Shown: piece by piece, positions 8,006-31,309 of the stretch
Layout: every line of letters starts with the position of its first letter
Numbering within the stretch: the stretch's first letter is position 1
Origin: an uncultured Chloroflexia bacterium
Lineage (GTDB): Bacteria > Chloroflexota > Limnocylindria > Limnocylindrales > CSP1-4
Direction of reading: 5' to 3'
Assembly (NCBI GenBank): GCA_963707215.1
Contig: CAVPPB010000003.1
Coordinates: 1,568,001-1,632,000 of the forward strand
DNA: 64,000 bases
The notes under the pieces: model-generated
Databases searched by the model: none
The model's input: the letters and a program-made list of their open reading frames with translations, nothing else
Told to the model about the DNA's origin: nothing
Program-made: the position numbers and the translations under genes

Positions 8006-9279
8006 GCCCGGGACTCCGGGTCGGAGGCCACGGGCTCCGGGTCGTACGCGAGGCCCGCCGCCGCCCCGAAGCCGCCGCCGAGGACGAACGTCTCGGTCGC
8101 GCCGGTGGCAGCGGTCGCGACGGTCGCCGTCTCCAGCGGGCGGCCGGCCTTCCGTGCCTCGACCGCCGCGTCGGAGCAGGTCGGGCAGGCTGGGTCCCGC
8201 CTGAGCTTCAGCTCGGTGAACGACGCGTCGAGCGCGTCGAAGAGGAGCAGTCGCCCGGCCAGGGAGTCGCCGATGCCGAGGATGAGCTTGAGCGCCTCGT
8301 TCGCCTGGAGCATGCCCATGATCCCGGGCACGACGCCCAGGACGCCTGCCACGGAGCAGCCCGGGGCGAGCTCGGGCGGCGGCGGCGTCGGGTAGAGGCA
8401 GCGGTAGCACGGACCCTCGAACGGCTTGAAGACCGTCAGCTGGCCCTCGAACCGGAAGACCGAGGCATGGACCACCGGGATCCCGGCGGCGACCGCGGCG
8501 TCGTTGAGCAGGTAGCGGGTCTCGAAGGTGTCGGTTCCGTCGAGGATGACGTCGTAGCCGGCGATGATCCGCTCGACGTTGTCGGCGACCAGCATCTCCT
8601 CGTGACCGACCACGGTCACCTCGGGGTTGATGGCGTTGATCGTCTGCCGCGCCGACTCGACCTTCTGGGTGCCCACGCGATCCGTCGTGTGGAGGATCTG
8701 GCGCTGGAGGTTGGAGACGTCGACGACGTCGAAGTCGACGATGCCGACCGTGCCGACCCCGGCCGCGGCCAGGTACAGGGCCGCCGGCGACCCGAGCCCC
8801 CCGGCACCGACGAGCAGGACCTTGGCGTCGAGCAGCCTGCCCTGGCCCTCGAGACCCACCTCGGGGATGAGCAGGTGGCGGCTGTAACGCCGCTTCTGGG
8901 CGTCGGTCAGGATCCGCGGCACGTCCCAGTCGAGGCCCTGGGCCTTCCATGACTGGAAGCCGCCGGCCATCGAGGCGACGTTCGTGTAGCCGAGCTGCTG
9001 GAGCGTCTGGCCGGCGAAGAGCGAGCGGATCCCACCGGCGCAGTAGATGACGACGGGACGGTCGCGGTCGGGGATGGCGGCCTCGATGTCCTGCTCGAGG
9101 TAGCTCTTGGAGACGTGGAGAGCACCGGGCGCGTGTCCGGCCTCCCACTCGATCTCCTCGCGGACGTCGAGCAGGACGGTCCGCGGATCGGCGGCCCGGG
9201 CGGCATCGGCCTCGAGCGCGCTGACCTCGCGGACCTGCTCGCGGGCCTCGCGAAGGAGATCGGCGTACGACTTGGGCAT
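8002..9279 (-). CDS. moeB: Rhodanese + ThiF/E1 sulfur-carrier adenylyltransferase/sulfurtransferase (MoeB/MoeZ)
   Basis: N-terminal rhodanese domain (CAGGIRS), RYSRH, GAGGLG, SNLQRQ, CYRC and CPTC Zn motifs. Confidence 0.92.
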   Translation of the reverse strand: MPKSYADLLREAREQVREVSALEADAARAADPRTVLLDVREEIEWEAGHAPGALHVSKSYLEQDIEAAIPDRDRPVVIYCAGGIRSLFAGQTLQQLGYTNVASMAGGFQSWKAQGLDWDVPRILTDAQKRRYSRHLLIPEVGLEGQGRLLDAKVLLVGAGGLGSPAALYLAAAGVGTVGIVDFDVVDVSNLQRQILHTTDRVGTQKVESARQTINAINPEVTVVGHEEMLVADNVERIIAGYDVILDGTDTFETRYLLNDAAVAAGIPVVHASVFRFEGQLTVFKPFEGPCYRCLYPTPPPPELAPGCSVAGVLGVVPGIMGMLQANEALKLILGIGDSLAGRLLLFDALDASFTELKLRRDPACPTCSDAAVEARKAGRPLETATVATAATGATETFVLGGGFGAAAGLAYDPEPVASDPESRA

Positions 9280-9431
9280 CTGGTTGGTGGCTCCGATGGG
9301 GCGACGGGCTGCCGCCGGAGCGGCAGGGCGGTGGTGATCGACGCGTCCGTGGCGTGTCCGCTAGGAGTTCGGGCGGGGTGGGGCCACGGTTTCCCGCTGC
9401 CGGTCGCCGGGGCGGCGGGGGCTCCGCCGGC

Positions 9432-9482
9432 TCAGCGATCCGGCCGCCGACACCTGCAGCGGCCCAGGCGGTCCATCGTCAT
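9432..9482 (-). CDS. Putative Cys-containing leader peptide MTMDRLGRCRCRRPDR
   Basis: ATGA overlap with the sufU stop; GRCxC motif shared with the sORF at 31226-31309; precedes moeB-cysO-cysM. Confidence 0.55.
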   Translation of the reverse strand: MTMDRLGRCRCRRPDR

Positions 9483-9916
9483 GCCCCGCGCTCGGCAGGG
9501 TGGGCATCCGGGGCCACGCCGGCGGCAGCTTCGTCCTGGGTCGGCTGGATGCCTGCCTCGACGAGGGCCTTCTTGAGGGTGTCGTAACTGAGCATCGCGC
9601 ACTTGAGCCGGGCCGGGCTGATCTCGATCCCCAGCAGGTCGAGGAGATCGTCGGCCCGGAAGGCGGCCACGTCGGCGACCGGCTTGCCCTTGATCTCGTC
9701 GGTCAGAAGGGAGGCGCTGGCCTGGCTGATGGCACAGCCGCGCCCGGTGAAGCCGACCTGGTCGACGACCCCGTCGGTGACGTGGATCTGGAGGGTGATC
9801 CGGTCACCGCAGAGCGGGTTGTTGCCCTCGATGCTCGCCGACGGCTCCTCCAGCACCCCGAAGTTGTGGGGCCGCCGGTAGTGCTCCAGGATGTAGTCGC
9901 GGTAGAGGTCGTCCAC
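9479..9916 (-). CDS. sufU: SufU/IscU-type Fe-S assembly / sulfur acceptor protein
   Basis: LY..ILEHY..P.NFG, NPLCGD, GCAISQAS, RLKCA motifs. Confidence 0.92.
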   Translation of the reverse strand: MDDLYRDYILEHYRRPHNFGVLEEPSASIEGNNPLCGDRITLQIHVTDGVVDQVGFTGRGCAISQASASLLTDEIKGKPVADVAAFRADDLLDLLGIEISPARLKCAMLSYDTLKKALVEAGIQPTQDEAAAGVAPDAHPAERGA

Positions 9917-9954
9917 GGTTCCCTGTGCTGTCGATCCGGCCGCTGTGGCCAGGG

Positions 9955-9981
9955 TAATCCCGACCGAATGCGTCGGGATTA
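9955..9981. promoter_or_regulatory. Rrf2 (IscR/CymR-like) operator upstream of sufU
   Basis: Perfect inverted repeat TAATCCCGAC-N7-GTCGGGATTA directly downstream of a minus-strand TAGCAT -10 box (9984-9989); near-identical copy upstream of the Rrf2 gene. Confidence 0.8.
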
Positions 9982-12900
9982 GGATGCTAGTCCCGGGGGC
10001 GGGGTCGCGTCAACGGCAGAGGACCCGACCGGTGCCGCACGTCTCGGATCCTCCAGCGCGGCCGCAGGTCCGGCCACAGGCGGCCCGGCCATCGCCATGT
10101 CGAGGCGATCGAGCCATGGCCGGGCCTCGACCCGCTCGAAGACAGCGTGCGCCTCCTCGGCGATCGCCCGGACGGCCGGATCACCGGCGCCGACGAGTGT
10201 GACGAGCGTCGTCGACTCCAGCGCCGCTTCGAAGTCCTCGCCTCGCTCGAGCATCCGACGGATAGCATCGCGATAGGCGGCGACGGCCTCCTGCCCGCGC
10301 CCCTCGAGCGCGGCGACCCCGCCGTTCGCGGCGGCCCGATAGAGCTGCAGGTCCGTGCTGCTCCCCGGGAGCTGGTCGAAGCGAGCCGCCACCCGGCGGG
10401 CACGGTCGATATCGCCCGCCCAGAGCGCCGCCCGGCCGGCGACGCGCAGGCAGACGTGGGCGAACGCTGAGAACAGATCGACAGCGCCGAAGGCCTCGTC
10501 GAAGGCCTTGTCGAGATCACCGGCCTCGATCAGCCGGAGGGCTCGAAGGATGAGGAGGACCTGTGCATCACCCGGGTCGGTGGCGTCCTGGAGCAGCGCC
10601 TCGAGCCGGTCCATGGACTCGCCGACCGGGTCGCCTCGATGGATGCGCAGGAGGGTGACGTAGGTCAGGATCCGCTGCTCGTCACTGGGGTCGCTGATCG
10701 CCGAGAGTGCTTCCTCGCCGGCAGCGATCGCGCCATCCCAGTCGTCGCCGGCCGCGAACGACGCGACCATGACGTTCGATACGAGCCAGTTGGCCATCAT
10801 CCGGTGGCCGACCCTGCGAGCGAGGGCGAGAGCGTCGATCCCGACCTGCTGCGACCGCCGCGGGTCATCGCCGCTCACGATCGAGCCGAGATTGGCCAGG
10901 GCGCGGAGCTCGGCCCCGACGAATCCTCCTTCCCGGGCGGCCCGGACCGCCGCCTCCAGCAGCGCGGCGGCTTCCCGCCGACGCCCGAGATATCCCAGGG
11001 CCGAGCCCTTGTTGTTGAACGTCTCGGCCACGACCAGCTCGAGATCGAGCCGCTCCGCGATGGCGAGCGCCCGGTCGGCGACCTCGATGGCTCGAGCCGA
11101 CTCGTCCGCCCGCATCAGCGCCCGCGACAAATTCGAGAGCACCTCCGCGCGGACCACCGGGTCGGCGTCCTCGGTCAGGTCCCCGAGGGTCGCTTCGAGC
11201 ATGACCCTCGCCTCGGCGATCCGCGACGCGTCGAGCAGGATCGCGCCATGCAGCGCCCGGGCCCGGGCGGCATCCATCTGATTGCCGGCGGCTTCGTAGG
11301 TCGCGGCCGCACCCTCGGCGAAGGCCATGGCCTCGGCGTAGCTCGAGCCGGCATCAGCGGAACGGGCGGCCCGGAGCATGAGCTTGGCCCGCTCAAGCCC
11401 TTCCGGGGTCACCTCGAGCGCCTGCTGGAGATGGGCGACGGCCTGCTGGTGGGCGCCCAGCGTGGCCGCTCGCTCGGCGGCTGCCCGGAGGGCGATCCGG
11501 GCCTGGCCTGCGACGGCATCGGCCTCGGGTCCGGGACTCGAGGCCCGGTGCGCGTCGAGATAGTGCGAGGCCAGCGCCCCGGCGAACTCCTCGTCGCCGA
11601 GCGTCTCGTACCAACGGGCCACGGCCAGGTGTCGGTCGCGGCGGTCGCGCCTGGCGAGGGTCCCGTACGCCACCTCGCGGATGAGCGATTGGACGAAGGC
11701 GTACTGGCCGCGCTCGGGCGAGCGCGGATCGGCCTCCAGCGAGAGCAGCTCGCGGCGGACGAGGGTGGCCAGCCGCGGCTCGAGATCGGCGACGTCGTCG
11801 CCGGTCGTGGAGGCCAGGCCCTCGAGCGTGAAGGTCTGCCCGAGCACCGACGCCGCCTGGACGAGCGCTCGGTCGGCTGCCTCCAGCGCATCGAGCCGGG
11901 AGGCGATGAGCGATCGGAGGGTGTCCGGGATCGCCAGGTTCGCCAGGTCGCCGACCGGCCGGTATGCCCCGTCGGTCATGGCCAGGCGTCCGTCGGCGAC
12001 GAGCGAGCGGACCGTCTCGACCGCGTACAGGGGGATCCCGTCGGCACGGTCGAGGATGGCGTCGGCGGCCGAGTCCGGGAGGCCTGGGACGAAGCCGTCG
12101 AGGAGCTCGTGCATCGCCTCATGCGAGAGCGGCTCCAGAGCCAGCGTCGTCAGGTTGCGCGCCGCCGAGCCCCAGCCGGCCCGACGTTCGAGCAGCTCCG
12201 GGCGAGCGAGCGTCACGACCAGGATCGGCGCGTTCCGCGACCAGGTCAGCAAGTGCTCGATGAAGTCGAGGAGTCCGGTGTCGGCCCACTGGAGGTCCTC
12301 GAACAGGAGGATCGTCGTGCCCTGGTCGGCGATCCGCTCGAAGAAGATGCGCCAGGCGGCGAACAGGACGTCGCGACCACCGGCCGGCGCCGGCTCCAGG
12401 CCCAGGAGCGTCAACAGGGCCGGCTCGACCCAGCGGCGGTCCTCGTCGGTCTGGACGTGATCGGCGACCGTCGCCGCGATCCGCTCTCGGGTCGTCGCCT
12501 CGTCGTCGGTCTCGGCCAGGCCCGCCCGGCGGCGGACCATCTCGCCCAGGGCCCAGAAGCTGATCCCCTCGCCGTATGACGGGGAGCGGCCGCGGTGCCA
12601 CCAGAGCGTCTCCGACACCCCGTCGGCGTACTTCTCGAACTCCCAGGCCAGCCGGCTCTTGCCGATGCCGCCGGGGCCGGTGATCGAGACGAGCCGGGCC
12701 TTGCGATCGCGGCCGGTGGCCGTGAGCTGGTCCTTGAGGAGCCGGAGCTCCTCATCACGACCGACGAAGGGCGGCTCCGGGAGGTCCGAGCGGCCGCGGC
12801 CGCCGCGCTCGGCGACGACCCGGAGCGCCCGCCAGGCCGGCACCGGCGCGGCCTTGCCCTTGAGGAGCTGCTCGCCGGCCTCCTCGAAGGCGATGGCCGA

Positions 12901-13575
12901 GCTCGCCGCCCGCTGGGTCGTCTCGCCGACCAGGACCGTGCCCGGCGGTGCGACAGACTGGAGACGGGCGGCCGTGTTGACGAGATCCCCGGCGACGAGG
13001 CCCTGGTTCGTCGCCCCGATCGTCACCGCGGCCTCCCCGGTCAGGACGCCGCAGCGGGCCTGGATCGTGGGGCCGAGGGCGCGGACGGCATCGGCAAGCT
13101 CGAGCGCGGCCCGGACGGCCCGCTCGGCATCATCCTCCTGGGCGACCGGGGCACCCCAGACTGCCATGACCGCGTCGCCGATGAACTTCTCGACCGTCCC
13201 GCCGTAGCGCTCGATGGTCTCGCGGCCGAGGTCGAAGTAGCGGGTCAGGAGCTCGCGGACCTCCTCGGGGTCCTTCTCCTCGGCAAACGGGGTGAACCCG
13301 ACCAGGTCGGCGAAGAGGACGCTGACGAGACGGCGCTCGGCGACGGGCGCGGTCCCGGAGGTCCGCCCGGTGCCCGCTCCGCCGGCCGTTCCCGCGCCGC
13401 CGGCCGTCGCCGGTGCGTCGGCACCCGGGAGCAGCGTGGCGCACTCGCCACAGAACTTCTCGCCGGGCTGGTTGGCGGCCCCGCAGGTCGGGCAGGTGAC
13501 CGCGAGCGGCGCGGCGCACTCGGAGCAGAACTTCCGCCCCGCTCGGTTCGCCATGCCGCAGTTGCCACAGATCAT
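9979..13575 (-). CDS. Double zinc-ribbon + class III adenylate/guanylate cyclase + AAA/STAND ATPase + TPR protein
   Basis: Four CxxC pairs, [51 protein letters not shown], helical C-terminus. Confidence 0.92.
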   Translation of the reverse strand: MICGNCGMANRAGRKFCSECAAPLAVTCPTCGAANQPGEKFCGECATLLPGADAPATAGGAGTAGGAGTGRTSGTAPVAERRLVSVLFADLVGFTPFAEEKDPEEVRELLTRYFDLGRETIERYGGTVEKFIGDAVMAVWGAPVAQEDDAERAVRAALELADAVRALGPTIQARCGVLTGEAAVTIGATNQGLVAGDLVNTAARLQSVAPPGTVLVGETTQRAASSAIAFEEAGEQLLKGKAAPVPAWRALRVVAERGGRGRSDLPEPPFVGRDEELRLLKDQLTATGRDRKARLVSITGPGGIGKSRLAWEFEKYADGVSETLWWHRGRSPSYGEGISFWALGEMVRRRAGLAETDDEATTRERIAATVADHVQTDEDRRWVEPALLTLLGLEPAPAGGRDVLFAAWRIFFERIADQGTTILLFEDLQWADTGLLDFIEHLLTWSRNAPILVVTLARPELLERRAGWGSAARNLTTLALEPLSHEAMHELLDGFVPGLPDSAADAILDRADGIPLYAVETVRSLVADGRLAMTDGAYRPVGDLANLAIPDTLRSLIASRLDALEAADRALVQAASVLGQTFTLEGLASTTGDDVADLEPRLATLVRRELLSLEADPRSPERGQYAFVQSLIREVAYGTLARRDRRDRHLAVARWYETLGDEEFAGALASHYLDAHRASSPGPEADAVAGQARIALRAAAERAATLGAHQQAVAHLQQALEVTPEGLERAKLMLRAARSADAGSSYAEAMAFAEGAAATYEAAGNQMDAARARALHGAILLDASRIAEARVMLEATLGDLTEDADPVVRAEVLSNLSRALMRADESARAIEVADRALAIAERLDLELVVAETFNNKGSALGYLGRRREAAALLEAAVRAAREGGFVGAELRALANLGSIVSGDDPRRSQQVGIDALALARRVGHRMMANWLVSNVMVASFAAGDDWDGAIAAGEEALSAISDPSDEQRILTYVTLLRIHRGDPVGESMDRLEALLQDATDPGDAQVLLILRALRLIEAGDLDKAFDEAFGAVDLFSAFAHVCLRVAGRAALWAGDIDRARRVAARFDQLPGSSTDLQLYRAAANGGVAALEGRGQEAVAAYRDAIRRMLERGEDFEAALESTTLVTLVGAGDPAVRAIAEEAHAVFERVEARPWLDRLDMAMAGPPVAGPAAALEDPRRAAPVGSSAVDATPPPGLAS

Positions 13576-13713
13576 CTGGCCCCTCCCGTGGAGTGCGAAG
13601 GGTAGCGGCTGAGGGCGGGCCGGGCCAGCCCGGGTGATCCGGCCACCCGGCCGCGTGGTCCGGCGAACCGCTCGACGGGCAGAGGGCAGGGCGGCGGGCA
13701 GCTCCTTGGCGGG

Positions 13714-14034
13714 GTTGCCCGTCTACGCATGCCGCCGGGGCGGTCACGGTGGCGTCCCGCGCTGACGTCCAAGGCGCTCAGCGCGACATCTGTCGGGTAC
13801 CAGTCACGCTGGTGCTATCGCGGATCGGTGACGGTCCCCCGGTGAAAGCACCGCGGTGCCAGCGTGGGCGTCCCGCATGGCACCAGCTCCACTGGTGCCG
13901 CACAAGGATCGCCGCCCGGGGACGGCATAGCACCAGCCCCGCTGGTACGGCACAGGAGCCACCGCCTCGAGCGACCGCCACGGACGGGTGACCGTCAAGG
14001 ACGGGTGACCCCCAGTGTTGCGCAGACGGGCAAC
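13714..14034. repeat. ~320-bp intergenic element with nested inverted repeats and three 28-bp motif copies (candidate structured ncRNA or DNA site array)
   Basis: Terminal IR 13714-13729/14019-14034 (15/16), inner IR 13829-13841/13985-13997 (12/13), motif ATRGCACCAGC-N4-CTGGTRC-N3-ACA at 13791-13818(-), 13877-13904(+) and 13927-13954(+). Confidence 0.6.
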
Positions 14035-14085
14035 GGCGATGGACGTGCACCTCGGGCAGCGGCCGCTCGCCGACCATCCCCGACC

Positions 14086-15384
14086 CTATCCCCCGAAGAG
14101 GCGCTGGACCTCCTGCAGCCCGGCGACGAGGGCGTCGACGTCCTCGCGGGTCGAGTAGACGTTGAACGAGGCGCGGACCGTCGCGGAGAGGTCCAGTCGC
14201 TCGTGGAGGGGCATCGTGCAGTGGTGTCCCGCCCGGACGCACACCCCGGAGCGGTCCAGGACCTGGGCCACGTCGTGCGGATGGACGCCGGGGACGTTGA
14301 ACGGGATGACCCCGCTCCGGAGGTCGGGGTCCAGCGGGCCGTACAGCTCGATCCCGGGCACGTCGCGCGCCAGCACGTCGAGCGCATAGGCGACGAGCTC
14401 TCGCTCGTGCTCGCGGACCCTGTCCATGCCGACCGCCATCAGGTACTCCGCGGCCGCCCCCAGCCCGATCGCCGCTGCGATATCCGGCGTCCCGGCCTCG
14501 AACTTCCAGGGCACGTCGTGCCACTCGGACCGCCGGAGGTGGACCTCGCGGATCATCTCACCGCCACCCATGAATGGCGGCATCGTCTCGAGCAGTTCCT
14601 TCCGTGCCCAGAGGGCACCGGAGCCGGTCGGCCCGAGCATCTTGTGGCCGCTGAACACGTAGAAGTCGGCCCCCAGGGCCTGGACGTCGACCGGCAGGTG
14701 GGGAACGGCCTGGGCGCCGTCAACGAGGACGAGCGCCCCGGCGGCGTGGGCCCGATCGACGATCTCGCGAACCGGGTTGATCGTCCCCAGCGTGTTGCTG
14801 ACCTGGACGAAGGCCACGAGCTTGGGCTTGAGCCGCAGCAGGACGTCGAGGACGTCGAGCCGCAGGATCCCGTCGTCGGTCATCGGGATGAACTCGAGAT
14901 CGCCGTCCTGCTCCTGGACCAGGAGCTGCCAGGGCACCAGGTTGGCGTGGTGCTCCATCTCGGTCAGGACGATCGCGTCGCCGCGCCCGATGTTCCGACG
15001 ACCCCAGCTATGGGCGACCAGGTTGACCGCCTCGGTCGCGTTGCGGACCCAGACGATCTCGTGGGGATCCGGGGCGTTGACGAACCGGGCGACGGACGCT
15101 CGGGCCGACTCGTAGGCCGCGGTCGCCCGCTCGCCGATCGCGTAGATGCCGCGGTGGACGTTCGCGTTGTACTCGCGATAGTAGGTGTCCATCGCCTCGA
15201 TGACCGCCAGCGGCTTCTGGCTGGTCGCGGCCGAGTCGAGGTACACGAGCGGCTTCCCGTGGGCCGTCGTCCCGAGGATCGGGAAATCGGCCCGCAGGGC
15301 ATGGGGATCGAGTCGGGCTCCGGGCCCGGCGGGCTGCGCCGGTGTCGGGGTCGGGGAGTTCGCGGCTCGGGCCTCGACGGTCAT
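14086..15384 (-). CDS. sufS: Cysteine desulfurase, SufS family
   Basis: YLDSAATSQKP, EHHAN, DGAQ, SGHKM (PLP Lys), RAGHHC active site. Confidence 0.95.
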   Translation of the reverse strand: MTVEARAANSPTPTPAQPAGPGARLDPHALRADFPILGTTAHGKPLVYLDSAATSQKPLAVIEAMDTYYREYNANVHRGIYAIGERATAAYESARASVARFVNAPDPHEIVWVRNATEAVNLVAHSWGRRNIGRGDAIVLTEMEHHANLVPWQLLVQEQDGDLEFIPMTDDGILRLDVLDVLLRLKPKLVAFVQVSNTLGTINPVREIVDRAHAAGALVLVDGAQAVPHLPVDVQALGADFYVFSGHKMLGPTGSGALWARKELLETMPPFMGGGEMIREVHLRRSEWHDVPWKFEAGTPDIAAAIGLGAAAEYLMAVGMDRVREHERELVAYALDVLARDVPGIELYGPLDPDLRSGVIPFNVPGVHPHDVAQVLDRSGVCVRAGHHCTMPLHERLDLSATVRASFNVYSTREDVDALVAGLQEVQRLFGG

Positions 15385-15417
15385 GGGACGGCGTAGCCTA
15401 GCGTGACCGGGCGGCCC

Positions 15418-16290: not shown

Positions 16291-16319
16291 GGTCGGTCGG
16301 TTCTCCTGGTGGCGGGGCG

Positions 16320-16853
16320 TCAGGCGGTGACCGCCTCACGGGGAGTGGTCGGATGCTGGCCGTTGTCGGACGTCCGGTTGGCGAGGCCCTCAAGGGCGAT
16401 CGCCCGGGACGGGACGAGGTCGGCCAGGGTGATGGAATCGAGCGATTCGGCGATCGCGTCACGGATCCTGATCCATAGCAGGTTGACCGTGCAGCGCGAC
16501 GTCCGGTCGCAGCCGGGCAGGTGGTCCGGCTCCTCGGAGGCGCAGACCATCGGGGCGATGGGGCCCTCCAGGGCCCGGAGGACATCAGCCATCGGGATGT
16601 CGCCCGGTGGTCGCGAAAGCTGGTAGCCGCCGCGCGCGCCCCTCGTGCTTGCGACCAGACCAGCGTCGCGGAGGGCGATGGCCAGCTGCTCGAGGTACGG
16701 GCGTGGCAGGTCCTCGTCGCCGGCGATCTCGGTCAGGGATGCCGGACCGGATCCGTAGCGACGGCCGAGCTGGACCATGAGCCGCACGCCGTACTCGCCC
16801 TTCGTGCTGAAGGCGAGTGCTCCGGTGCCGTGGTACGTCTGGCGCTGGCTCAA
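16320..16853 (-). CDS. Rrf2-family transcriptional regulator (IscR/CymR-like, three C-terminal Cys)
   Basis: STKGEYG, YLEQL, STRGARGGYQL, LEG, C-x10-C-x5-C; start uncertain (TTG 16853 with GGAG SD, or TTG 16883). Confidence 0.9.
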   Translation of the reverse strand: MSQRQTYHGTGALAFSTKGEYGVRLMVQLGRRYGSGPASLTEIAGDEDLPRPYLEQLAIALRDAGLVASTRGARGGYQLSRPPGDIPMADVLRALEGPIAPMVCASEEPDHLPGCDRTSRCTVNLLWIRIRDAIAESLDSITLADLVPSRAIALEGLANRTSDNGQHPTTPREAVTA

Positions 16854-16893
16854 GGACCGGGATCTCCAGGACAGGGTGACCAAGACGCTCGGT

Positions 16894-16920
16894 CAATCCC
16901 GACGGATCTTGTCGGGATTA
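16894..16920. promoter_or_regulatory. Rrf2 autoregulatory operator
   Basis: CAATCCCGAC-N7-GTCGGGATTA adjacent to a minus-strand TAGACT -10 box (16921-16926). Confidence 0.8.
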
Positions 16921-20963: not shown

Positions 20964-20965
20964 CT

Positions 20966-22041: not shown

Positions 22042-22562
22042 ACGGCCCGGAGACGATCCGCCTCCGCCGCCCCGTCGAGGCCGATCACGCCTTCGTCGTC
22101 GGGCGGGTCGACGCTTGGTGGGGCGGACGACGACTGCACGACCTGCTCCCGCGCCTCTGGTTCCAGCACTTCACCGGCACGTCGTGGATCGCCGAGGCCG
22201 AGGACGGCCGGATCGTCGGCTTCCTGGTCGGCTTCGTCTCGCCCGACCACCCCCAGCTTGGGTACGTCCACATGACCGCCATCGCGCCCGGCCTCCGACG
22301 CCGGGGCGTCGCTCGCGAGCTGTACGAGCGCTTCTTCGCCGACGTCGCCGCCCGCGGGGTGAGGACGATCCGGGCGGTCACCTGGCCTGGCAACCGGGTC
22401 TCGATCGACTTCCACCGGGCGATCGGGTTCAAGGCGGTGGACGGTCCCGGGACGGTACCGGCCTGGGGATCGCCGGCCTTCCTCGACTACGACGCCCCGG
22501 ACGAGGACCGGACGGTCTTCGAGCTGACCCTCGACGAGCAGGGCCGAGCGGTCCCCGAGTAG
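22038..22562 (+). CDS. GNAT-family N-acetyltransferase
   Basis: IVGFLVGF, YVH, P.LRRRGVA, N..S..FH..IGF; probable CTG start in a CTGA overlap. Confidence 0.85.
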   Translation: MNGPETIRLRRPVEADHAFVVGRVDAWWGGRRLHDLLPRLWFQHFTGTSWIAEAEDGRIVGFLVGFVSPDHPQLGYVHMTAIAPGLRRRGVARELYERFFADVAARGVRTIRAVTWPGNRVSIDFHRAIGFKAVDGPGTVPAWGSPAFLDYDAPDEDRTVFELTLDEQGRAVPE

Positions 22563-22588
22563 CGTCGGGCCGCCGCGCGGCGCGGGGC

Positions 22589-23905: not shown

Positions 23906-24444
23906 CGCTCCATCCGCTCCGGGCGCGGTGCCCGGGGGACGCCGTGGTCGGGGTGCTCGGCCGCCTGGCGGCGGGCCTCGCGCAGGCGCGCTTCCATCGC
24001 GGGGTCGAGCGGGATCGACCCGGTCGAGCCCGTCGCCGTGTGGGCATCGGAGCCGCTGCCGACGCCGGGGCCGGCCGCCGAGGACGGGACGGCGCCCATC
24101 CCCTGCCCCGGCCCGATGCCGCCGTCCTCCCCTCGGAAGGGCATCCCCTGGCGCTCGACGGCATCGAGGCTCATCCGCAGGGCCGAGGTCTTCCGTTCGG
24201 CGACCTCGCGAACGTAGGCCGCCTCCTCGTCGGCGGTCATCCGTCGCCCCCGGATGATGTCCGTGGGCTTGCCGACCATCAGCCAGGCGAGGTGGTAGCG
24301 GTCCATCGTTCCCCAGGCCTGTGACAGGAGGTCGTCGGACAGTTGGAGCCACGTCCGCAGCGCGCCCAGGTCGGGGCGGGCCTGCAGTCGCTCGCCCTCC
24401 TCGACGAGCTGGCGGGTCCGGACGATGAGCTCGTCGCGGGTCAT
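23902..24444 (-). CDS. Hypothetical protein
   Basis: ATGA overlaps on both sides; helical N-terminal domain with a low-complexity tail. Confidence 0.7.
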   Translation of the reverse strand: MTRDELIVRTRQLVEEGERLQARPDLGALRTWLQLSDDLLSQAWGTMDRYHLAWLMVGKPTDIIRGRRMTADEEAAYVREVAERKTSALRMSLDAVERQGMPFRGEDGGIGPGQGMGAVPSSAAGPGVGSGSDAHTATGSTGSIPLDPAMEARLREARRQAAEHPDHGVPRAPRPERMER

Positions 24445-25376
24445 CGCGGGAGGGCCGCCCGCTCGGCGAGCGAGACCTCGTCGATCCAGCGCTCGCGGGC
24501 CTGGCGCAGGGCGAGGGTCCGGCTGCCGGGCTCGCCCGAGCCGATCGCCCGGCCGTCGAGCGCCACGAGCGGCACGATCCCGGCAACGGTGCTCGAGAGG
24601 AACGCCTCGTCGGCGGCCACGAGGTCGTCCGGGATCAGGTCCGTCGCCGCCGGCGCAAGGCCCAGTTCGCGGACGCTCGGATGCTCGAGCAGCCAGGTCC
24701 GCGTCGTGCCGGCAAGGATCGCCGCACCCGCCGTCGGCGTCAGGAGGCGATCGCCGGTGATGGCGAACACGTTGGCGCTCGTCGCCTCGCTGACGCGACC
24801 GTCGGTCGTCATGAAGAGCGCGTCGTCGACGCCGGCCCGCTCGGCCTCCAGCCGGGCGTAGACGTAATCGGCCCGGGACGTCGCCTTGATCCCGGCGAGC
24901 GGCGAGGCCGGATCCCGGTGTACCCGGCTCGCCACCGCCCGGATGCCCCGGGCCAGGACCGTCGGCGGCGTCGGCAGGTAGGCCCAGGCCTGGATCACCA
25001 CGGTCGCATGGGCGACCTCCCAGCCGGGCGGCAGCGTCCCGCGCCGGTCCAGCGACCCGCGGCTGGCGGTGATCCGGACCGCGGCGTCACCGGGTGCCAG
25101 CCGATCGTCGCCCGGGCCGCCCAGGTGCTCGACGTCGAGCAGTTCCAGGAGGCCGGCCAGGATCGCCTCGTCCGGCGGGAGGTGGATCGCCAGGGCCACC
25201 GCACCCTCGTGGAGTCGCTCCACGTGCTCAGCCCACTCGATCGGCACGCCACGGCGGGCCCGGAGCGTCTCGAACAAGCCGTCGCCCAGCTGGAAGCCGC
25301 GGTCGGTGACCGGGAGGTGCGGGCCGTGGGCATCCAGCAGGTGACCGTCCAGCCAGACGTGGGCAGGGAGTGTCAT
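24441..25376 (-). CDS. Class IV aminotransferase (4-amino-4-deoxychorismate lyase / IlvE-like)
   Basis: DRGFQLGDGLFET, H.ERL, IK, E...ANVF, ILAGTTR, ADEAFLSST. Confidence 0.88.
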   Translation of the reverse strand: MTLPAHVWLDGHLLDAHGPHLPVTDRGFQLGDGLFETLRARRGVPIEWAEHVERLHEGAVALAIHLPPDEAILAGLLELLDVEHLGGPGDDRLAPGDAAVRITASRGSLDRRGTLPPGWEVAHATVVIQAWAYLPTPPTVLARGIRAVASRVHRDPASPLAGIKATSRADYVYARLEAERAGVDDALFMTTDGRVSEATSANVFAITGDRLLTPTAGAAILAGTTRTWLLEHPSVRELGLAPAATDLIPDDLVAADEAFLSSTVAGIVPLVALDGRAIGSGEPGSRTLALRQARERWIDEVSLAERAALPR

Positions 25377-25469
25377 CACGCGGACCGTTCGGCGGTGGGC
25401 GGGCGGCCGGATGGGCCGGCGCAACGGGGCGCCGATCGGATGATCGCCGGCTCGGGCATCATGGGGACG

Positions 25470-26582
25470 ATGGTAGCCGAGCCGCCCACGAGCCCCGGGC
25501 CCCCACCGAACGCCGCCCGCCTGGACGCCACGCGTCTCGAGCGAGCCTTCCGGGCGATCGCCGAGGCCGTGGCCGCGGGCGAGCCGCCGGCAGCGGTCCT
25601 CGCGGTAGCCGGCCCGGGCGGCCCGGTCCAGGCCCGCGGCTTCGGGACCGACGGCCGCGCGCGCGTCGGCGTGGGCCACCGCTTCCGGGTCGCCTCGATC
25701 ACCAAGCCCATCGTGGCAACGGCCGTGATGCAGCTGGTCGAGGAGGGCCGGCTGACCCTGTCCGATCCCGTCCGCCGGCACGTCCCCGAGTTCGATCCGC
25801 CGGCCGTTGCGGCGGGCCGCCCCGGGGCGGAGGCCGTGACCGTCTGGCACCTCCTCACCCACACTTCCGGCGCGATCGACCTGGACTGGCACGGCCAGGG
25901 GATGGCGCCGCCGAGCGCGGACGAGATCGTCGCCAGCGTCTGCAGCCGGCCGCTGGCCTTCGCCCCGGGCAGCGCCTACACGTACGCCTCGGACACCTTC
26001 TTCCTGCTCGGGCTGATCCTCCAGCGGGTCGGCGGCCACTCGTCGATCGGCGCGGCCCTGGGCGCGCGGATCCTCGAGCCCCTGGGCATGACGGCCACCG
26101 GCTTCGAGATGCGGACCGAGGGCCACGCCAACGCCCCGGTCTCGATCGCCGGTGGGGACGGGGTCGACACCGAGCGCTTCTCCGAGTGGATCAGCGCGGT
26201 CGAGCACCCGGGCGGCGGGCTCTGGTCGACGGCCCACGACCTCGTGGCCTTCGGGCGGGCTTCGATGGCGGCTCCGTCGGTCCCGAGGATCCTCGGCCGA
26301 CCGTTCCTCGAGCTGATGCGTCGCGAGCAGACGGCCGGCGTCTTCGAGCCCGGCGAGCCGCCGCGTCGCCCCACCTACGGCCTGGGCTGGGCCAAGCCGA
26401 CCCTGGACGGCCGGATGCCAGGTCCGCCATCGGTCGTCGAGCACGCCGGTGCCACCGGGAGCCGGCTCTGGGTCGACCCGCAGAACGGCCTGGTCATCGC
26501 CCTCCTGGTGGGCAGGTGGGGCGCGGATCGGGCGCTGGCCGACACGGCGATCGCGGCGGTCTACGGGGCGCTGGAGGCCTGA
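25470..26582 (+). CDS. Serine hydrolase, beta-lactamase/class C family
   Basis: F.VASITK (SxxK), LLTHTSG, F.PG...Y.YAS, I..PLGM, GGGLWST, H.G.TG. Confidence 0.9.
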   Translation: MVAEPPTSPGPPPNAARLDATRLERAFRAIAEAVAAGEPPAAVLAVAGPGGPVQARGFGTDGRARVGVGHRFRVASITKPIVATAVMQLVEEGRLTLSDPVRRHVPEFDPPAVAAGRPGAEAVTVWHLLTHTSGAIDLDWHGQGMAPPSADEIVASVCSRPLAFAPGSAYTYASDTFFLLGLILQRVGGHSSIGAALGARILEPLGMTATGFEMRTEGHANAPVSIAGGDGVDTERFSEWISAVEHPGGGLWSTAHDLVAFGRASMAAPSVPRILGRPFLELMRREQTAGVFEPGEPPRRPTYGLGWAKPTLDGRMPGPPSVVEHAGATGSRLWVDPQNGLVIALLVGRWGADRALADTAIAAVYGALEA

Positions 26583-26643
26583 CGGCCCCGGGTCCCGGCC
26601 TCGGCCGCGGCGGCGCGTCGCGCCCCTGATGGCGCGTGGTGGC

Positions 26644-28149
26644 CTACCCGACCTCCCGGGAGCCGATCGCACCGAGCGGGCCATGGGCCTTGGCCACGGT
26701 CTCCTCCCACTCCGCGTCGGGGTCGCTTCGCCAGGTGATGCCGCCACCGACGTGGAGGGTCAGGCGCCGCCCGTCGGCGACCAGGGTGCGGATGAGGATG
26801 CTGGTCCCCATCGTCCCGTCGGGGGAGACCCAGCCCAGGGCCCCGGTGTACGGCCCACGCCGGACGGGCTCCAGGTCCTCGAGGAGCTCGATGGCCCGCA
26901 GCTTCGGGGCGCCGGTGATCGAGCCGCCGGGGAAGCTCGCCGCCAGCAGGTCGAACGGGTCGCGACCCGGTGCCAGCCGGCCGGTCACCGTGGAGACCAG
27001 GTGCTGGACGGTCGCCGTCCGCTCGAGCCGGCACAGCCGGGGTACCCGGACGGTCCCCGGCTCGCAGACCCGGCCGAGGTCGTTGCGGAGGACGTCGACG
27101 ATCATCACGTTCTCGGCTCGGTCCTTGGCCGAGGCGAGCAGCTCGAAGGCGAGAGCCCGCTCCTCCGCCCGGTCGCGACCCCTGGGCCGGGTCCCCTTGA
27201 TCGGGTCGGTCGAGACGAGCCCGCCCGACCGGACCGCCAGGAACGGCTCCGGTGAGGCCGAAAGGATCGCTCGCCTGACGCGGGTCTCCGGGTGGATGCC
27301 CAGGTCCAGGAAGGCCGCGAAGCGAGCCGGATCGCCGCCACGAAGCCGCCGGTAGACGGCCCACGGATCGCCGGTGAAGGGCGCCTCCAGGCGTCGCGCC
27401 AGGTTGGCCTGGTAGATCTCGCCGGCCGCGATCGAGGCACGGATCGACTCGACCGAGCGACGATGCGTCAGCCGGTCCATGGAGGACCGGAAGGCCGCTG
27501 GCGCAAGCGTCACCGCGGGGGGGCCGCCGCCACGGACCTGATCGTCGACCCTGGATCGGCCGCCCGCCAGCGCCGCTGCGATCCCGGCCCGGAGCTCGCC
27601 GGCCCGTCGACCCAGGCGTGGTACGTCGCCGTCGAGCGCCCTGCCACCAAGCCACGCCCGTCCCGTGGTCCCGTCCCAGGCGAGGACGAGGTCGTGGAGC
27701 GCCAGCCGCAGGATCGGCAGTCCCTGGTCGTCGGGCGCCCGGTGCGGGAGGCGCTCCAGGCGACCGCCGAGGTCGTAGCCGAGGTAGCCGAGGAGGCCAC
27801 CGAGGAACGGCGGCACGGCCCCTTCGGCAGCGCCCGCGCCCCCCGTGCTCGGCATCCCGCTCGCCAGTCGGGCCAGGAGCCGGCGAGCTTCGGCGAACGG
27901 ATCGGGACCGCCGGCCGGCGCCTCGAGTACGACGATGGGATCTGCCGCGAGGAAGGTCCAGCGGTCACGCCGTCCGCGCCGGGCCGTCTCGAGCAGCGCC
28001 AGGCCGGTCCGCGCCGGCAGGGCCTCGGCGACATCGAGCGGCGCCAGGCCGTCGAGGGCCGGCCAGCGCTCCAGCAACACGCCGCCAGGGACCGACCCCA
28101 CAGGAGGCTCGGGGTCGATCATGGAACGGACGGGCGCGAGCCGGGCCAT
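26644..28149 (-). CDS. pabB: Aminodeoxychorismate synthase component I / anthranilate synthase component I family
   Basis: GYLGYD, GEIYQANL, SASPE, PIKGTRPR, KDRAENVMIVD..RNDL, SFPGGSITGAPK. Confidence 0.88.
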   Translation of the reverse strand: MARLAPVRSMIDPEPPVGSVPGGVLLERWPALDGLAPLDVAEALPARTGLALLETARRGRRDRWTFLAADPIVVLEAPAGGPDPFAEARRLLARLASGMPSTGGAGAAEGAVPPFLGGLLGYLGYDLGGRLERLPHRAPDDQGLPILRLALHDLVLAWDGTTGRAWLGGRALDGDVPRLGRRAGELRAGIAAALAGGRSRVDDQVRGGGPPAVTLAPAAFRSSMDRLTHRRSVESIRASIAAGEIYQANLARRLEAPFTGDPWAVYRRLRGGDPARFAAFLDLGIHPETRVRRAILSASPEPFLAVRSGGLVSTDPIKGTRPRGRDRAEERALAFELLASAKDRAENVMIVDVLRNDLGRVCEPGTVRVPRLCRLERTATVQHLVSTVTGRLAPGRDPFDLLAASFPGGSITGAPKLRAIELLEDLEPVRRGPYTGALGWVSPDGTMGTSILIRTLVADGRRLTLHVGGGITWRSDPDAEWEETVAKAHGPLGAIGSREVG

Positions 28150-28245
28150 GGCGGGCATTATCGTGGCGCCGGGCCCGAGGCGGATGGAGCCGAAAGACCC
28201 GCCGACAGCAGCCGGCATGCGATCCGGACCAGGAGGAGGGCATCG

Positions 28246-29406
28246 ATGCGGGCAGGCGACCTCGACCTCCGGATCGGGACGCTCGATCCGGGACCCCTCG
28301 ACGCCATCACCGACGTCCCGGGGCTCCGGGTCGGCCACGCCACGATCGTCCGCGGCGACGGCCCCCTCGTCCCCGGTGAGGGGCCGGTGCGGACGGGCGT
28401 CACGGTGCTCATCCCCCACGACGGCGATCCCTGGCTGGAGCCGGTCTTCGCCGGCTGCCACCGCCTCAACGGCGACGGCGAGCTGACCGGGCTGGAGTGG
28501 ATCCGCGAGGCCGGCCTGCTGAGCGGCCCGATCGGGCTGACGAACACCCACAGCGTCGGCGTCGTCCGGGACGCGCTCATCGTCGATGCCGTGGCGTCGC
28601 ATGAGCAGGGCGCCCCGATCTGGTCGCTGCCGGTCGTCGGCGAGACCTACGACGGTGCCCTCAACGACATCGACGGCTTCCACGTCACCCCGGCCCACGT
28701 CGCCGAGGCCCTCCGGGCGGCCTCGTCCGGACCGGTGGCCGAGGGCGGGGTCGGTGGCGGGACCGGCATGGTCTGCCACGGCTTCAAGGGCGGCATCGGG
28801 ACGGCGTCGCGGCTGGCGCCCGGCCCCGACGGACCGTGGGTCGTCGGGGTCCTGGTCCAGGCCAACTACGGCAGCCGCGAGCAGCTCCGGATCGACGGCG
28901 TGCCGGTCGGGCGGGAGATCCCCCGGTCCGAGCTGCCGAGCCCCTGGGACCAGGCGACCGAGGTCCGGCGCCGGCTTCGCGGCCGCGAGGGGGCGGGCTC
29001 GATCATCGTCATCGTGGCGACGGACGCTCCGCTGCTCCCGCACCAGTGCGCGCGCCTGGCCCAGCGGCCGTCGCTGGCCCTCGGCCGGATGGGCAGCATC
29101 GCCTCGACCGGTTCCGGGGACCTGTTCCTGGCCTTCGCGACCGGCAACCGGCTGCGGGCCGGGGACGGGGCACCCGGCGACCCGGACGACGAAACCCCTA
29201 CCGTCACGGACGTCCGGATGGTCGGCGAGGGAGCGATCGACGGGCTCTTCGCCGCCACGGTCGAAGCCACCGAGGCGGCCATCGTCAACGCCCTGGTCGC
29301 CGCCGAGACGATGGAGGGTCGGGACGGCATCACCGCCCACGCACTCCCCCACGACCGGCTGGCGCAGGTCATGGCGGCCCACGGGCGCCCGCTCGGCGGC
29401 GGCTGA
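28246..29406 (+). CDS. dmpA: DmpA/P1 (S58) family aminopeptidase
   Basis: AITDVPG..VGH, RTGVT, EG.VGGGTGM, KGGIGTASR, GSIIVIVATDAP cleavage site, SGD..LAF.T. Confidence 0.9.
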   Translation: MRAGDLDLRIGTLDPGPLDAITDVPGLRVGHATIVRGDGPLVPGEGPVRTGVTVLIPHDGDPWLEPVFAGCHRLNGDGELTGLEWIREAGLLSGPIGLTNTHSVGVVRDALIVDAVASHEQGAPIWSLPVVGETYDGALNDIDGFHVTPAHVAEALRAASSGPVAEGGVGGGTGMVCHGFKGGIGTASRLAPGPDGPWVVGVLVQANYGSREQLRIDGVPVGREIPRSELPSPWDQATEVRRRLRGREGAGSIIVIVATDAPLLPHQCARLAQRPSLALGRMGSIASTGSGDLFLAFATGNRLRAGDGAPGDPDDETPTVTDVRMVGEGAIDGLFAATVEATEAAIVNALVAAETMEGRDGITAHALPHDRLAQVMAAHGRPLGGG

Positions 29407-29415
29407 GGTCCGCCT

Positions 29416-30261
29416 GTGGCGGTGCCGACCATCCGGCCGCTGACGCCGGACGACTTCGGGTCGGTCGACCGGATCCTCGCGGCCAGCGGGGAGGGGGTCG
29501 CGGACGCGAGCGGGCAGTGGCCGTACCTGGAGCTGATCGAGGCCTGCGGTCGGGCGCTGGTGGCCGAGCTCGACGACCGCATCGTCGGGTTCGCGGCGAC
29601 CGTGCCGTCCGGCCGGATCACCCATGTCAGCGACCTGTTCGTCGACCCCGGTCACCAGGGGACCGGAATCGGAAGCCGGCTGCTGGCCGAGGTCCTGGGC
29701 GACGCCTGGCCGCGGACCACGTTCAGCTCCGCCGACCCGCGAGCCCTGCCGCTCTACGTCCGCAACGGCCTGCGACCCGGTTGGCCCGGCTGCTACGTCG
29801 TCGGGTCGGCCGAGGCACTGCCGCAGCCGGCTGCCGGGCTGACGACGGAGCCGTTGGTCGCTTCCGCGATGACCGAGGTCGAGCGGCGGATCGCCGGCGT
29901 CGACCGGGCGGTCCTCCACGCCCACGAGGCCCGCGAGGCCGGCTCGCTCCACCTCGCGGTCCGCGCCGGCGACCGGATCGTCGCGGCCGGGCACGCCCGG
30001 GATGCCCGCAAGGACCCGGGTCGCTGGCTCGATCGCCTCGTCGTCGACCCGGCCGCCGACCCGGTGGAGGCTGTCGTGGCGGCGCTGGCCGCTGCCGCCG
30101 TCCCCGGCCGCCAGGTGGGGACCTGCGTGCCCGGCCCCCATCCGGCGCTCGCGGTCCTGCTGGAAGCCGGCTTCCGGATCATCGATCGCGACGTCTATTG
30201 CGAAAGCGAGCCGGGCCTCGTCGACCCGGCTCGCTCGCTGCCGGACCCGGCGCTGCTCTAG
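29416..30261 (+). CDS. GNAT-family acetyltransferase (two-domain)
   Basis: LFVDP.HQGTGIGSRLL acetyl-CoA motif, ALPLY.R.G. Confidence 0.82.
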   Translation: MAVPTIRPLTPDDFGSVDRILAASGEGVADASGQWPYLELIEACGRALVAELDDRIVGFAATVPSGRITHVSDLFVDPGHQGTGIGSRLLAEVLGDAWPRTTFSSADPRALPLYVRNGLRPGWPGCYVVGSAEALPQPAAGLTTEPLVASAMTEVERRIAGVDRAVLHAHEAREAGSLHLAVRAGDRIVAAGHARDARKDPGRWLDRLVVDPAADPVEAVVAALAAAAVPGRQVGTCVPGPHPALAVLLEAGFRIIDRDVYCESEPGLVDPARSLPDPALL

Positions 30262-30304
30262 GCGCGCCGGCCCGCGGCGCCCGCAGCTCGGCGCCCGCGG
30301 CGCG

Positions 30305-31162
30305 TCATCCGCCGGCGGACCGCTCGATCGGCACGCCGACCATGCTCCCCCACTCGGTCCAGCTTCCGTCGTAGTTGCGGACCCGCGGGTAGCCGAGCAG
30401 CTCGTGGAGGACGAACCAGGTGTGCGACGAGCGCTCGCCGATGCGGCAGTACGCGATGACGTCCCTGTCCGCCTTGACGCCCTTCGCCCCGTAGAGATCG
30501 CGGAGCTCGTCGGCGCTCTTGAAGCGACCATCCTCCGCGACGGCCTGGGCCCACGGGATCGAGGCTGCGCCCGGGATGTGGCCGGCCCGCTGGGCCGTCT
30601 CGCTCATGCCGGGTGGGGCGATGACCTCGCCGGCGAACTCGGCCGGGCTGCGGACGTCGACGAGGACGAGGTTGGGATCGCCGAGTCTCGGCAGGATGTC
30701 GTCGCGGAAGGCCCGCGTCGAGAAGTCGGCCGGCGGCAGCTCGTAGGCGGTCTCCGGGTAGGTCGGGGCATCGACCGAGAGCGCGAGCCCGCGGTCAAGC
30801 CAGTAGCGGCGCCCGCCATCGAGGATGCGCACGTCCTTGTGCCCGTAGAGTCGCAGCTGCCAGTACGCCCAGGCGGCGAACCAGTTGTTGTTGTCGCCGT
30901 ACAGGACGACGGTCGTCTCCGGCCCGATGCCACTCTTCGACAGGAGCCGGCCCAGGTCCTCGCGGCTGGCGATGTCGCGACGGATCCCGTCCGACAGCTG
31001 GCTCGTCCAGTCCCAGCCGATGGCGCCGGGGATGTGGCTCTGGTCATAGGCCGTCGTGTCGACATCGACCTCGACGAAGCGGACCGAGGGATGGTCGAGA
31101 TGCTCGAGCGCCCAGTCGGCGCTGACGAGGGCCCGATCGTGGCCGGTGATCTTGGCGGTCAT
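30305..31162 (-). CDS. Thiosulfate sulfurtransferase (tandem rhodanese, CysA/SseA type)
   Basis: HIPGA twice, LDGG, CRIGER active loop, NYDGSWTEWG. Confidence 0.93.
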   Translation of the reverse strand: MTAKITGHDRALVSADWALEHLDHPSVRFVEVDVDTTAYDQSHIPGAIGWDWTSQLSDGIRRDIASREDLGRLLSKSGIGPETTVVLYGDNNNWFAAWAYWQLRLYGHKDVRILDGGRRYWLDRGLALSVDAPTYPETAYELPPADFSTRAFRDDILPRLGDPNLVLVDVRSPAEFAGEVIAPPGMSETAQRAGHIPGAASIPWAQAVAEDGRFKSADELRDLYGAKGVKADRDVIAYCRIGERSSHTWFVLHELLGYPRVRNYDGSWTEWGSMVGVPIERSAGG

Positions 31163-31225
31163 GGGATCTCCTTCGCGGGTGGTGGCCGTGCGCCACCGGT
31201 GCGGGGACGTCGAGGGGATCGGGGG

Positions 31226-31309
31226 TCAGGGGCGTCGGCGGGTCCTGCGAGCGGGGTCGCGGACCCGCCAGGGACACGCGCAGCGGCCCACCGGACGTCG
31301 CTCAACCAT
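31226..31309 (-). CDS. Putative Cys-containing leader peptide MVERRPVGRCACPWRVRDPARRTRRRP
   Basis: ATG overlaps the end of the upstream gene; GRCxC motif shared with the sORF at 9432-9482; precedes the sulfurtransferase. Confidence 0.55.
   Translation of the reverse strand: MVERRPVGRCACPWRVRDPARRTRRRP

Follow-up and report, generated by a model that had tools for sequence, protein, structure and literature searches.

In classical attenuators of Enterobacteria such as trpL, hisL and leuL, segment 1 of the leader RNA directly follows the regulatory codons, and the stop codon is found between the arms of the first hairpin; leuL uses rare CUA codons at the sensing position. For cysteine, the closest described systems are mycobacterial: in Mycobacterium smegmatis, an operon for a thiosulfate sulfurtransferase is governed by cysteine-responsive short open reading frames, or sORFs (Canestrari et al., bioRxiv 10.1101/834739, Mol Microbiol 2020). 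As presented in the preprint, the mycobacterial “Cys ribulon” (Ms5788A, for example) consists of leaderless polycysteine sORFs, the criterion being at least two consecutive Cys codons, and the mechanism is base-pairing between the Cys codons and the Shine-Dalgarno (SD) region (10.1101/834739). Rho-dependent control was proposed for actinobacterial cys leaders in the article of Seliverstov et al. (2005, PMC1262725). Here, we describe two sORFs of another design in a 64,000-nucleotide stretch of DNA (the window) from an uncultured Chloroflexia bacterium (assembly GCA_963707215.1, contig CAVPPB010000003.1, positions 1,568,001 to 1,632,000). sORF1 lies between sufU and the moeZ-cysO-cysM-mec genes, and sORF2 between the gene of a 151-amino-acid (151-aa) protein and a rhodanese sulfurtransferase gene; both encode a Cys-x-Cys (CxC) pair. 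On balance, we lean towards both being copies of one cis-regulatory leader which is read by ribosomes, senses cysteine supply and sits inside operons.

Two copies of one coding element

The window has a G+C content of 73%, and the host assembly, 85% complete, comprises 3,257,968 bases (3.26 Mb). A preliminary description of the window had reported the two sORFs and a core common to both. Translation returned both reading frames at the positions listed in Table 1, and the core, TGGGCCGCTGC-N3-TGTC, has two matches in the whole assembly, both at these sORFs, while the reversed control pattern has none. With up to one mismatch allowed, the window contains 2 matches against 0.01 expected (100 shuffles). 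The paired observation is therefore confirmed, far beyond chance. Domain and family matches likewise bear out the sulfur genes said to lie downstream (moeB-cysO-cysM-mec in one case, a sulfurtransferase in the other).

Further sORFs of the GRCxC type, which the same description had raised for the host genome, did not turn up. A scan of the genome for CxC plus hairpin arm gave 43 matches, 14 of them outside called genes, and no third copy of the sORF; among these 14, a nearby downstream gene and a matching 3’ arm are found together only at the two known loci. A third candidate (C1:100896), which neighbours a tRNA gene and precedes a sigma-factor gene, has no start codon and was rejected. Searches against Rfam gave no meaningful match, either at gathering thresholds over the whole window or in E-value mode for both leaders.

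Reading frame, coupled start and codon choice in relatives

To follow the sORFs across relatives, the sufU-moeZ and 151-aa-rhodanese junctions were excised from 24 genomes of the same family, mostly one per genus. Among 19 distinct sufU-moeZ junctions, 17 contain a CxC (or CCxC) that shares its frame with an ATG or GTG start at -4, -1 or +2; these offsets are counted from where the sufU stop codon ends and correspond to a single reading frame. The distance from start codon to CxC varies between 9 and 54 nucleotides (nt) and is a multiple of three every time. The remaining two are a 63-nt junction without an sORF (G022) and a junction which, on inspection, does carry one (L083). For the rhodanese type, 14 junctions were usable, a count that leaves out two loci: in ten of them the CxC is in frame with a start codon at -8 or -4, one carries a variant with a single Cys, and the other three have neither. 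Presence of the sORF in orthologous regions was the check chosen beforehand, and relatives do have it in frame; the claim of a single element type that starts on the stop of the preceding gene, lies mid-operon and places CxC before sulfur genes holds in frame across many genera.

The full catalogue comprises 29 distinct moeZ-type and 19 distinct rhodanese-type sORFs, of which 25 and 16, drawn from 32 and 93 distinct junction strings, respectively, form the detailed set. Start codons stand at -4, -1 or +2 in 24/25 moeZ-type sORFs and at -8, -4 or +1 in all 16 of the rhodanese type. An SD-like 4-mer precedes the start in 19 of the 29 moeZ-type sORFs, compared to 28% (677/2430) at the matching place before other genes. 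Total length ranges from 10 to 47 codons, and the N-terminal part, of 3 to 18 codons, is free in both sequence and length. What stays constant in the peptide is (G)-(R/C)-C-x-C; the residue preceding the first Cys is itself Cys in 3/17, and three or four Cys occur in 5/25 moeZ-type and 6/16 rhodanese-type sORFs (MCRCACRRPA and MKRTIPWCGCACSTPA, for example). Cys codons thus number 2-4 per 10-47 codons, whereas they make up 0.63% of codons genome-wide.

Codon choice is as constant as the frame. The second Cys codon is TGT in 41/41 sORFs and the first is TGC in 39/41, in a genome where TGT accounts for 12.7% of Cys codons; the middle codon is AGG, used for 4.8% of Arg codons, in 18 of the 25 moeZ-type sORFs. 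A single tRNA-Cys was found, with anticodon GCA, and UGU must therefore be read by wobble. One lineage, represented by one genome, has GGT CGT TGT AGG TGT, i.e. three synonymous changes. Taken at the level of sequence comparison, these patterns indicate that translation of the sORF is under selection.

The rhodanese-type sORF is patchy. The best 80 of 508 loci of the 151-aa family include 76 with a rhodanese gene downstream, and the sORF is present in 5 of these 76 junctions, most of the 76 being 52-90 nt long and without an sORF. An ATG occurs within the terminal 12 nt of the 151-aa gene in 8/76 junctions, four of which have intact sORFs and three remnants; among junctions without such a terminal ATG, an sORF is found in 1/68. 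The sORF is evidently gained and lost among close relatives, as regulatory inserts behave.

A hairpin at fixed distance from the second Cys codon

In 27 of 27 sORFs, the arm core GCSGG begins 5 nt after the second Cys codon, and this offset is invariant in alignment A1. A GC hairpin is formed in all 27 sORFs first examined, with z-scores against shuffled sequences that are negative throughout (-0.6 to -4.7). Hairpins were scored sequence by sequence and not by alignment; RNAalifold on MAFFT alignments was uninformative because the 3’ arms were left unaligned. The two arms compensate for one another: GCCGG pairs with CCGGC before moeZ and GCGGG with CCCGC before the rhodanese gene, and other stem variants and a G-U pair are found. 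The residues after CxC (RRPA versus PxRAR) track these arm sequences. The stop codon falls within the hairpin loop in 23/25 moeZ-type and 11/16 rhodanese-type sORFs; the sORF2 copy in the window has its stop codon 8 nt past the hairpin and not in the loop.

Downstream of this first hairpin (H1) is a spacer with a C-G skew of +0.27 to +0.31, compared to +0.04 ± 0.10 for 349 other co-directional spacers of the genome. The spacer before moeZ is followed by a second hairpin, (CCGCC)CUGCCG-loop-CGGCAG(CCCGUCG), in which one pair alternates between C-G, A-U and U-A and which takes the form CCGCCG/CGGCGG in one genus (loci L004, L008, L013, L016, L025, L026, L028, L084, L088, L092 and L254-L257). It is found also where the sORF is absent.

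Neither leader contains a terminator-like site (hairpin followed by a U tract). Over positions 1-40000 of the window, U-tract terminators are not above shuffled expectation either (3 where 2.0 are expected, and 0 where 1.8 are), which suggests that this organism relies on other termination signals. A rho gene is present in the genome (611 bits, above cut-off); no boxA or rut motif was defined, and folds of the whole leaders are not unusually stable (z of -1.1 and -0.7). Two further ideas were dropped: for base-pairing between the sORF core and the second hairpin, considered by eye only, no covariation was seen, and programmed frameshifting at the Cys codons, prompted by the 5-nt spacing, finds no slippery sequence and a variable P-site codon in the rhodanese type.

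Related sORFs in other gene contexts

The same type of sORF precedes a beta-class carbonic anhydrase gene at three loci in two other genera (L064, L065 and L264), with the peptides M-CCCAC-LERV..., ...RCLC... and ...RRCGCRGRV..., and with a metY-like gene alongside in L264. The element thus precedes three kinds of sulfur-linked genes: moeZ-cysO-cysM-mec, rhodanese, and beta-carbonic anhydrase with its metY-like neighbour. In the host’s 85%-complete assembly, tblastn found no homologue of the beta-carbonic anhydrase. The class-wide pattern search was noisy: most of the 30 loci fetched were matches in coding regions, and L068, L069, L258, L261, L265-267, L269, L270 and L273-275 were discarded, being coding or antisense.

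In a sister family (f4), moeZ lies next to sufU, in most cases with direct coupling of the two, and an intervening sORF is carried by 5/30 loci. This sORF, of 21-28 aa, has its start on the stop codon of sufU, and the encoded sequence is MS(R/K)SFxGRRVSCLQSTGRC, a motif present in 20/161 genomes of the family, always between sufU and moeZ, with no control match (loci L094, L102, L114, L115, L118 and L233-L253; G270 and G187 being unpublished genomes). Downstream of the sORF stands a conserved GACCGAUG motif with which its final codons can pair, so that here, too, the stop codon comes to lie in a loop. The 28-aa form of the peptide has no match in Pfam or NCBIfam. Judging from the two peptides, CxC may be a shortened C-x6-C.

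Gene neighbourhoods and operators

The features of the two loci are collected in Table 1. On the minus strand, the order at the first locus is Rrf2/CymR-like regulator, sufC, sufS, a gene of 1198 codons, sufU, sORF1, moeZ, cysO, cysM and mec. The preliminary description took sufU for the first gene of its operon, which holds only in part: in relatives sufS lies directly upstream, and the sORF is therefore truly mid-operon. As sufS abuts sufU in relatives, the 1198-aa gene looks like an insertion that brought a second promoter and operator copy.

Table 1 Positions of the sORFs, RNA structures, genes and upstream elements in the window
Feature	Position	Strand	Remark
sORF1, 16 codons, MTMDRLGRCRCRRPDR then stop	9432..9482	-	ATG overlaps the TGA of upstream sufU as ATGA
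sORF1 Cys codons	TGC 9458-9456; TGT 9452-9450	-	Rare Arg codon AGG in between
First hairpin (H1) of sORF1	9426..9444	-	5’ arm GCCGG 5 nt after TGT, 3’ arm CCGGC; sORF stop TGA (9434-9432) in loop
Untranslated spacer, H1 to second hairpin	9327..9425	-	C-rich and G-poor; C 0.49, G 0.30 over 9283-9431
Second conserved hairpin, CUGCCG-loop-CGGCAG with CCCGUCG flank	9302..9326	-	About 8 nt before the moeZ SD
moeZ SD, GGAG	9294-9291	-	
sORF2, 27 codons, MVERRPVGRCACPWRVRDPARRTRRRP then stop	31226..31309	-	ATG 8 nt before the end of the 151-aa gene
sORF2 Cys codons	TGC 31282-31280; TGT 31276-31274	-	
First hairpin (H1) of sORF2	31236..31270	-	10-bp stem UGGCGGGUCC / GGACCCGCCG; core arm GCGGG 5 nt after TGT
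Rrf2-family (CymR/IscR-like) regulator gene	16320-16883	-	
Inverted repeat before the Rrf2-family gene	16920-16895	-	With promoter-like site 16949-16921
Zinc-ribbon, adenylate/guanylate cyclase, AAA_16 and TPR gene, 1198 aa	9979-13575	-	Between sufS and sufU
Promoter-like TTGACG-18-TAGCAT before sufU	10013-9984	-	
Perfect inverted repeat TAATCCCGAC-N7-GTCGGGATTA before sufU	9981-9955	-	
sufU, Fe-S cluster sulfur-transfer protein (SufU, TIGR01994)	9479..9916	-	Stop codon overlaps sORF1 start
moeZ/moeB-like E1 enzyme with N-terminal rhodanese domain (Rhodanese and ThiF; NCBIfam MoeB/MoeZ models)	8002..9279	-	
cysO, ThiS family, C-terminal AMAGG	7733..8005	-	Start overlaps moeZ stop
cysM-like pyridoxal-phosphate enzyme (PALP)	6672..7736	-	
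mec-like JAB/JAMM peptidase	6217..6675	-	Start position approximate
151-aa gene	31302..31757	-	Last codons contain sORF2 start
Two-domain rhodanese sulfurtransferase	30305..31162	-	SD AAGGAG 31173-31168

An Rrf2-type operator had been proposed for both operons. On the sufU side the proposal fits: a promoter-like TTGACG-17/18-TAG(C/A)(A/C)T, followed immediately by the perfect repeat TAATCCCGAC-N7-GTCGGGATT, stands before sufU and before the Rrf2/CymR-like gene, and these two upstream regions hold the only perfect copies of the repeat genome-wide (a copy with one mismatch lies at G000:C1:525531). Upstream of the 151-aa gene there is a different short palindrome and not the sufU-type repeat, and the putative Rrf2-type operator assignment applies to the sufU side only. 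In another family (f3, loci L123-L149), moeZ is not adjacent to sufU and has no sORF. Its upstream region contains GGAATTTCCGAC-N6-8-GTCGGTTTAGA near a -10-like box and the start codon (noted by eye, uncounted), a CCGAC..GTCGG palindrome and thus of one type with the Rrf2-linked repeat of the window.

The 151-aa protein matches no family in Pfam or NCBIfam and has 508 relatives in public genomes, with one invariant Cys. Its AlphaFold model is confident (pLDDT 88), and Foldseek gave only weak matches to winged-helix proteins of the PadR/MarR type (E 0.025 or worse). From the model, the protein may be a regulator of the rhodanese operon.

A probable ribosome-read leader and its alternatives

The sORF, its frame and coupled start, the Cys codons, the geometry of the hairpin and the association with sulfur genes are the observations on which we build; from them we infer cysteine as the signal, the direction of the response and all steps after the stall. 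Ribosomes finishing sufU or the 151-aa gene would restart at the overlapping start codon of the sORF and, after a few arbitrary codons, would meet the Cys-x-Cys pair, the second codon of which is the rare, wobble-read UGU. When Cys-tRNA is plentiful, the ribosome would reach the stop codon and leave, the hairpin would reform, and the untranslated C-rich spacer would be exposed to decay or to premature termination. Termination would most likely be by Rho, which we favour because U-tract terminators are lacking, and little moeZ-cysO-cysM-mec or rhodanese would be made. When Cys-tRNA is scarce, the ribosome would pause on the Cys codons, up against the 5’ arm; the RNA would then follow a different path and the sulfur genes would be expressed. 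On the sufU side, this would add a cysteine-specific layer on top of an operon headed by an Rrf2-type operator. The interpretation given in the preliminary description is, as a whole, partly supported, with cysteine-dependent attenuation as a hypothesis.

A more specific proposal, which we advance tentatively and with distinctly less confidence, is that of a Chloroflexota family of intra-operonic, translationally coupled cysteine sensors in which one wobble-read UGU stands 5 nt before a stop-holding hairpin. In such a family, the dwell of the ribosome would set expression of the distal sulfur genes via Rho or RNA decay, and not via an intrinsic terminator or masking of the SD; the sensor would have spread to at least three unrelated sulfur contexts and, in the sister family, would have evolved into a sequence-specific peptide of the arrest type.

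Several results weigh against a cysteine-sensing leader or against parts of its supposed action. Firstly, the sensing part is slight: the two Cys codons are fewer than in most known attenuators and are non-consecutive, and with UGU in the ribosomal A site the base of the hairpin would be at the mRNA entrance and not clearly inside, so that its melting by a stalled ribosome is uncertain. Secondly, the nucleotides around the Cys codons are almost invariant, and there an RNA-level role is inseparable from coding. Thirdly, the downstream signals are not specific or not definable: the same C-G skew (+0.31) is found in 72 151-aa-rhodanese junctions without an sORF, i.e. C-richness does not go with the sORF, and no conserved antiterminator/terminator pair could be defined downstream of H1. 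Predicted duplexes between the Cys core and the SD are no better than controls (for the moeZ type, -14.0 kcal/mol compared to -13.6 when cross-paired and -15.1 when shuffled). In constrained folding, the free leader was compared to a stalled and a terminating state, in which the footprint of the ribosome was masked at the Cys codons and at the stop codon, respectively; accessibility of the SD or the spacer did not change consistently (0.44/0.42/0.40 and 0.41/0.43/0.45 for the three states in that order). On these duplex energies and folds, a model in which the SD is masked was rejected. The 21 sequencing runs that match the window sequence, with word shares of at most 0.12, are all DNA, with no RNA run among them. 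Finally, the peptide of the sister family is conserved at the amino-acid level over seven genera, with synonymous and Ser TCN/AGC changes, and a pure codon sensor has no need of such conservation.

The last point speaks for another reading, namely that the sORFs encode functional micropeptides, the Cys-x-Cys thiol working with sulfur-transfer enzymes (as a persulfide acceptor, for example) or binding metal, and the hairpin being a by-product or a stabiliser. We consider this unlikely, even though the sister-family peptide recurs in 20/161 genomes with synonymous changes between genera and both main downstream proteins start with a rhodanese domain. The family to which the window belongs keeps only R/G-C-x-C, leaving the N-terminal part and the length (10-47 aa) unconserved, and the residues after CxC follow the hairpin arm and its compensating 3’ arm. 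A peptide would not explain the constant TGT, the sORF is patchy among close relatives that keep the enzymes (5/76; 5/30), the beta-carbonic anhydrase context is without a rhodanese, and neither Pfam nor NCBIfam has a match.

Less probable again is a ribosome-arrest peptide that would sense free cysteine, sulfide or persulfide, or would act at termination in the manner of TnaC, the held ribosome shielding the start of the C-rich spacer from Rho. The position of the stop codon in a loop adjoining the C-rich spacer, together with the presence of rho, would suit it, as would the conservation of the sister-family peptide. The C-terminal P-A-stop kept in moeZ-type sORFs could be read in the same way, but the P-A codons are the hairpin arm GCCGG, so that selection on the peptide is unneeded; moreover, the ends of rhodanese-type sORFs vary, with the stop past the hairpin in 5/16. 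A stall induced by a metabolite usually activates when the metabolite is abundant, as for tnaC, which is ill-suited to an operon of cysteine synthesis. Least probable is an RNA or DNA element bound by a protein (a hairpin-binding regulator) or a processing site splitting the suf from the cys part of the transcript, with translation incidental: near-invariance of GCTGCAGGTGT and GCCGG, third codon positions included, a hairpin kept by compensatory changes and a second structure that exists without the sORF all speak for it, but frame and start codon survive many independent length changes, one lineage has synonymous changes only, some sORFs have acquired additional Cys codons, the presence of the ATG goes together with that of the sORF and no Rfam family matches.

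Significance and comparison with described systems

A cysteine-sensing leader of the kind favoured here would extend cysteine sensing, in a different design, to an uncultured and environmentally abundant Chloroflexota lineage. It would be an intra-operon sensor fed by the ribosomes of the upstream gene, and would consist of two codons, the second of which is rare, invariant and set at a constant spacing from a hairpin; expression of iron-sulfur assembly genes and of cysteine synthesis would become separable within one transcript. The geometry provides a precise, testable model of how few codons suffice for amino-acid sensing in GC-rich bacteria without canonical terminators. For annotation, dozens of conserved, unannotated sORFs are flagged. 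Within the literature searched, as far as its texts extend, mycobacteria are the only bacteria in which experiments have demonstrated cysteine sensing by the ribosome, and that literature, which does not cover the supplementary sORF lists of Canestrari et al., where loci comparable to moeZ/cysO may be included, does not describe cysteine leaders that are of the CxC type, translationally coupled or from Chloroflexota.

With tnaC of Escherichia coli and mgtL of Salmonella, the element shares an sORF followed by a long, C-rich untranslated spacer, without an intrinsic terminator and in the presence of rho. It differs in that the C-rich skew occurs also in relatives without the sORF, and Rho has a proposed role only. 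The likeness to trpL, hisL and leuL is one of layout: a translated sORF is enriched in codons of the presumed regulating amino acid, these codons lie beside the 5’ arm, the stop codon is mostly between the arms, and a rare codon occupies the sensing position. Unlike these attenuators, the element has two regulatory codons, is intergenic and translationally coupled, and has neither a U-tract terminator nor a definable antiterminator pair.

The mycobacterial sORF attenuators, as set out in the published account, are closest. In both cases, genes of cysteine or sulfur metabolism, a sulfurtransferase among them, are preceded in cis by an unannotated sORF that contains Cys codons, several loci per genome share the sensor idea, and positions other than Cys may be constrained at the nucleotide level. 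The differences concern the start, the codons and the RNA. Mycobacterial sORFs are leaderless and at the 5’ end, whereas in those described here translation would restart where the preceding gene stops, with the promoter-like site lying upstream of sufU. Mycobacterial Cys runs of 2 to 8 are replaced by CxC, adjacent Cys (CCRC, CCMC) being limited to a minority of relatives. And where Cys codons pair with the SD in mycobacteria, no such pairing is predicted in the Chloroflexota element, which has instead a hairpin at a fixed 5 nt and a stop codon in its loop. The comparison inclines us, by a modest margin of belief, to regard the element as a variant of the cysteine-sensing leader sORFs that occurs in another phylum and is wired differently from its mycobacterial counterparts.

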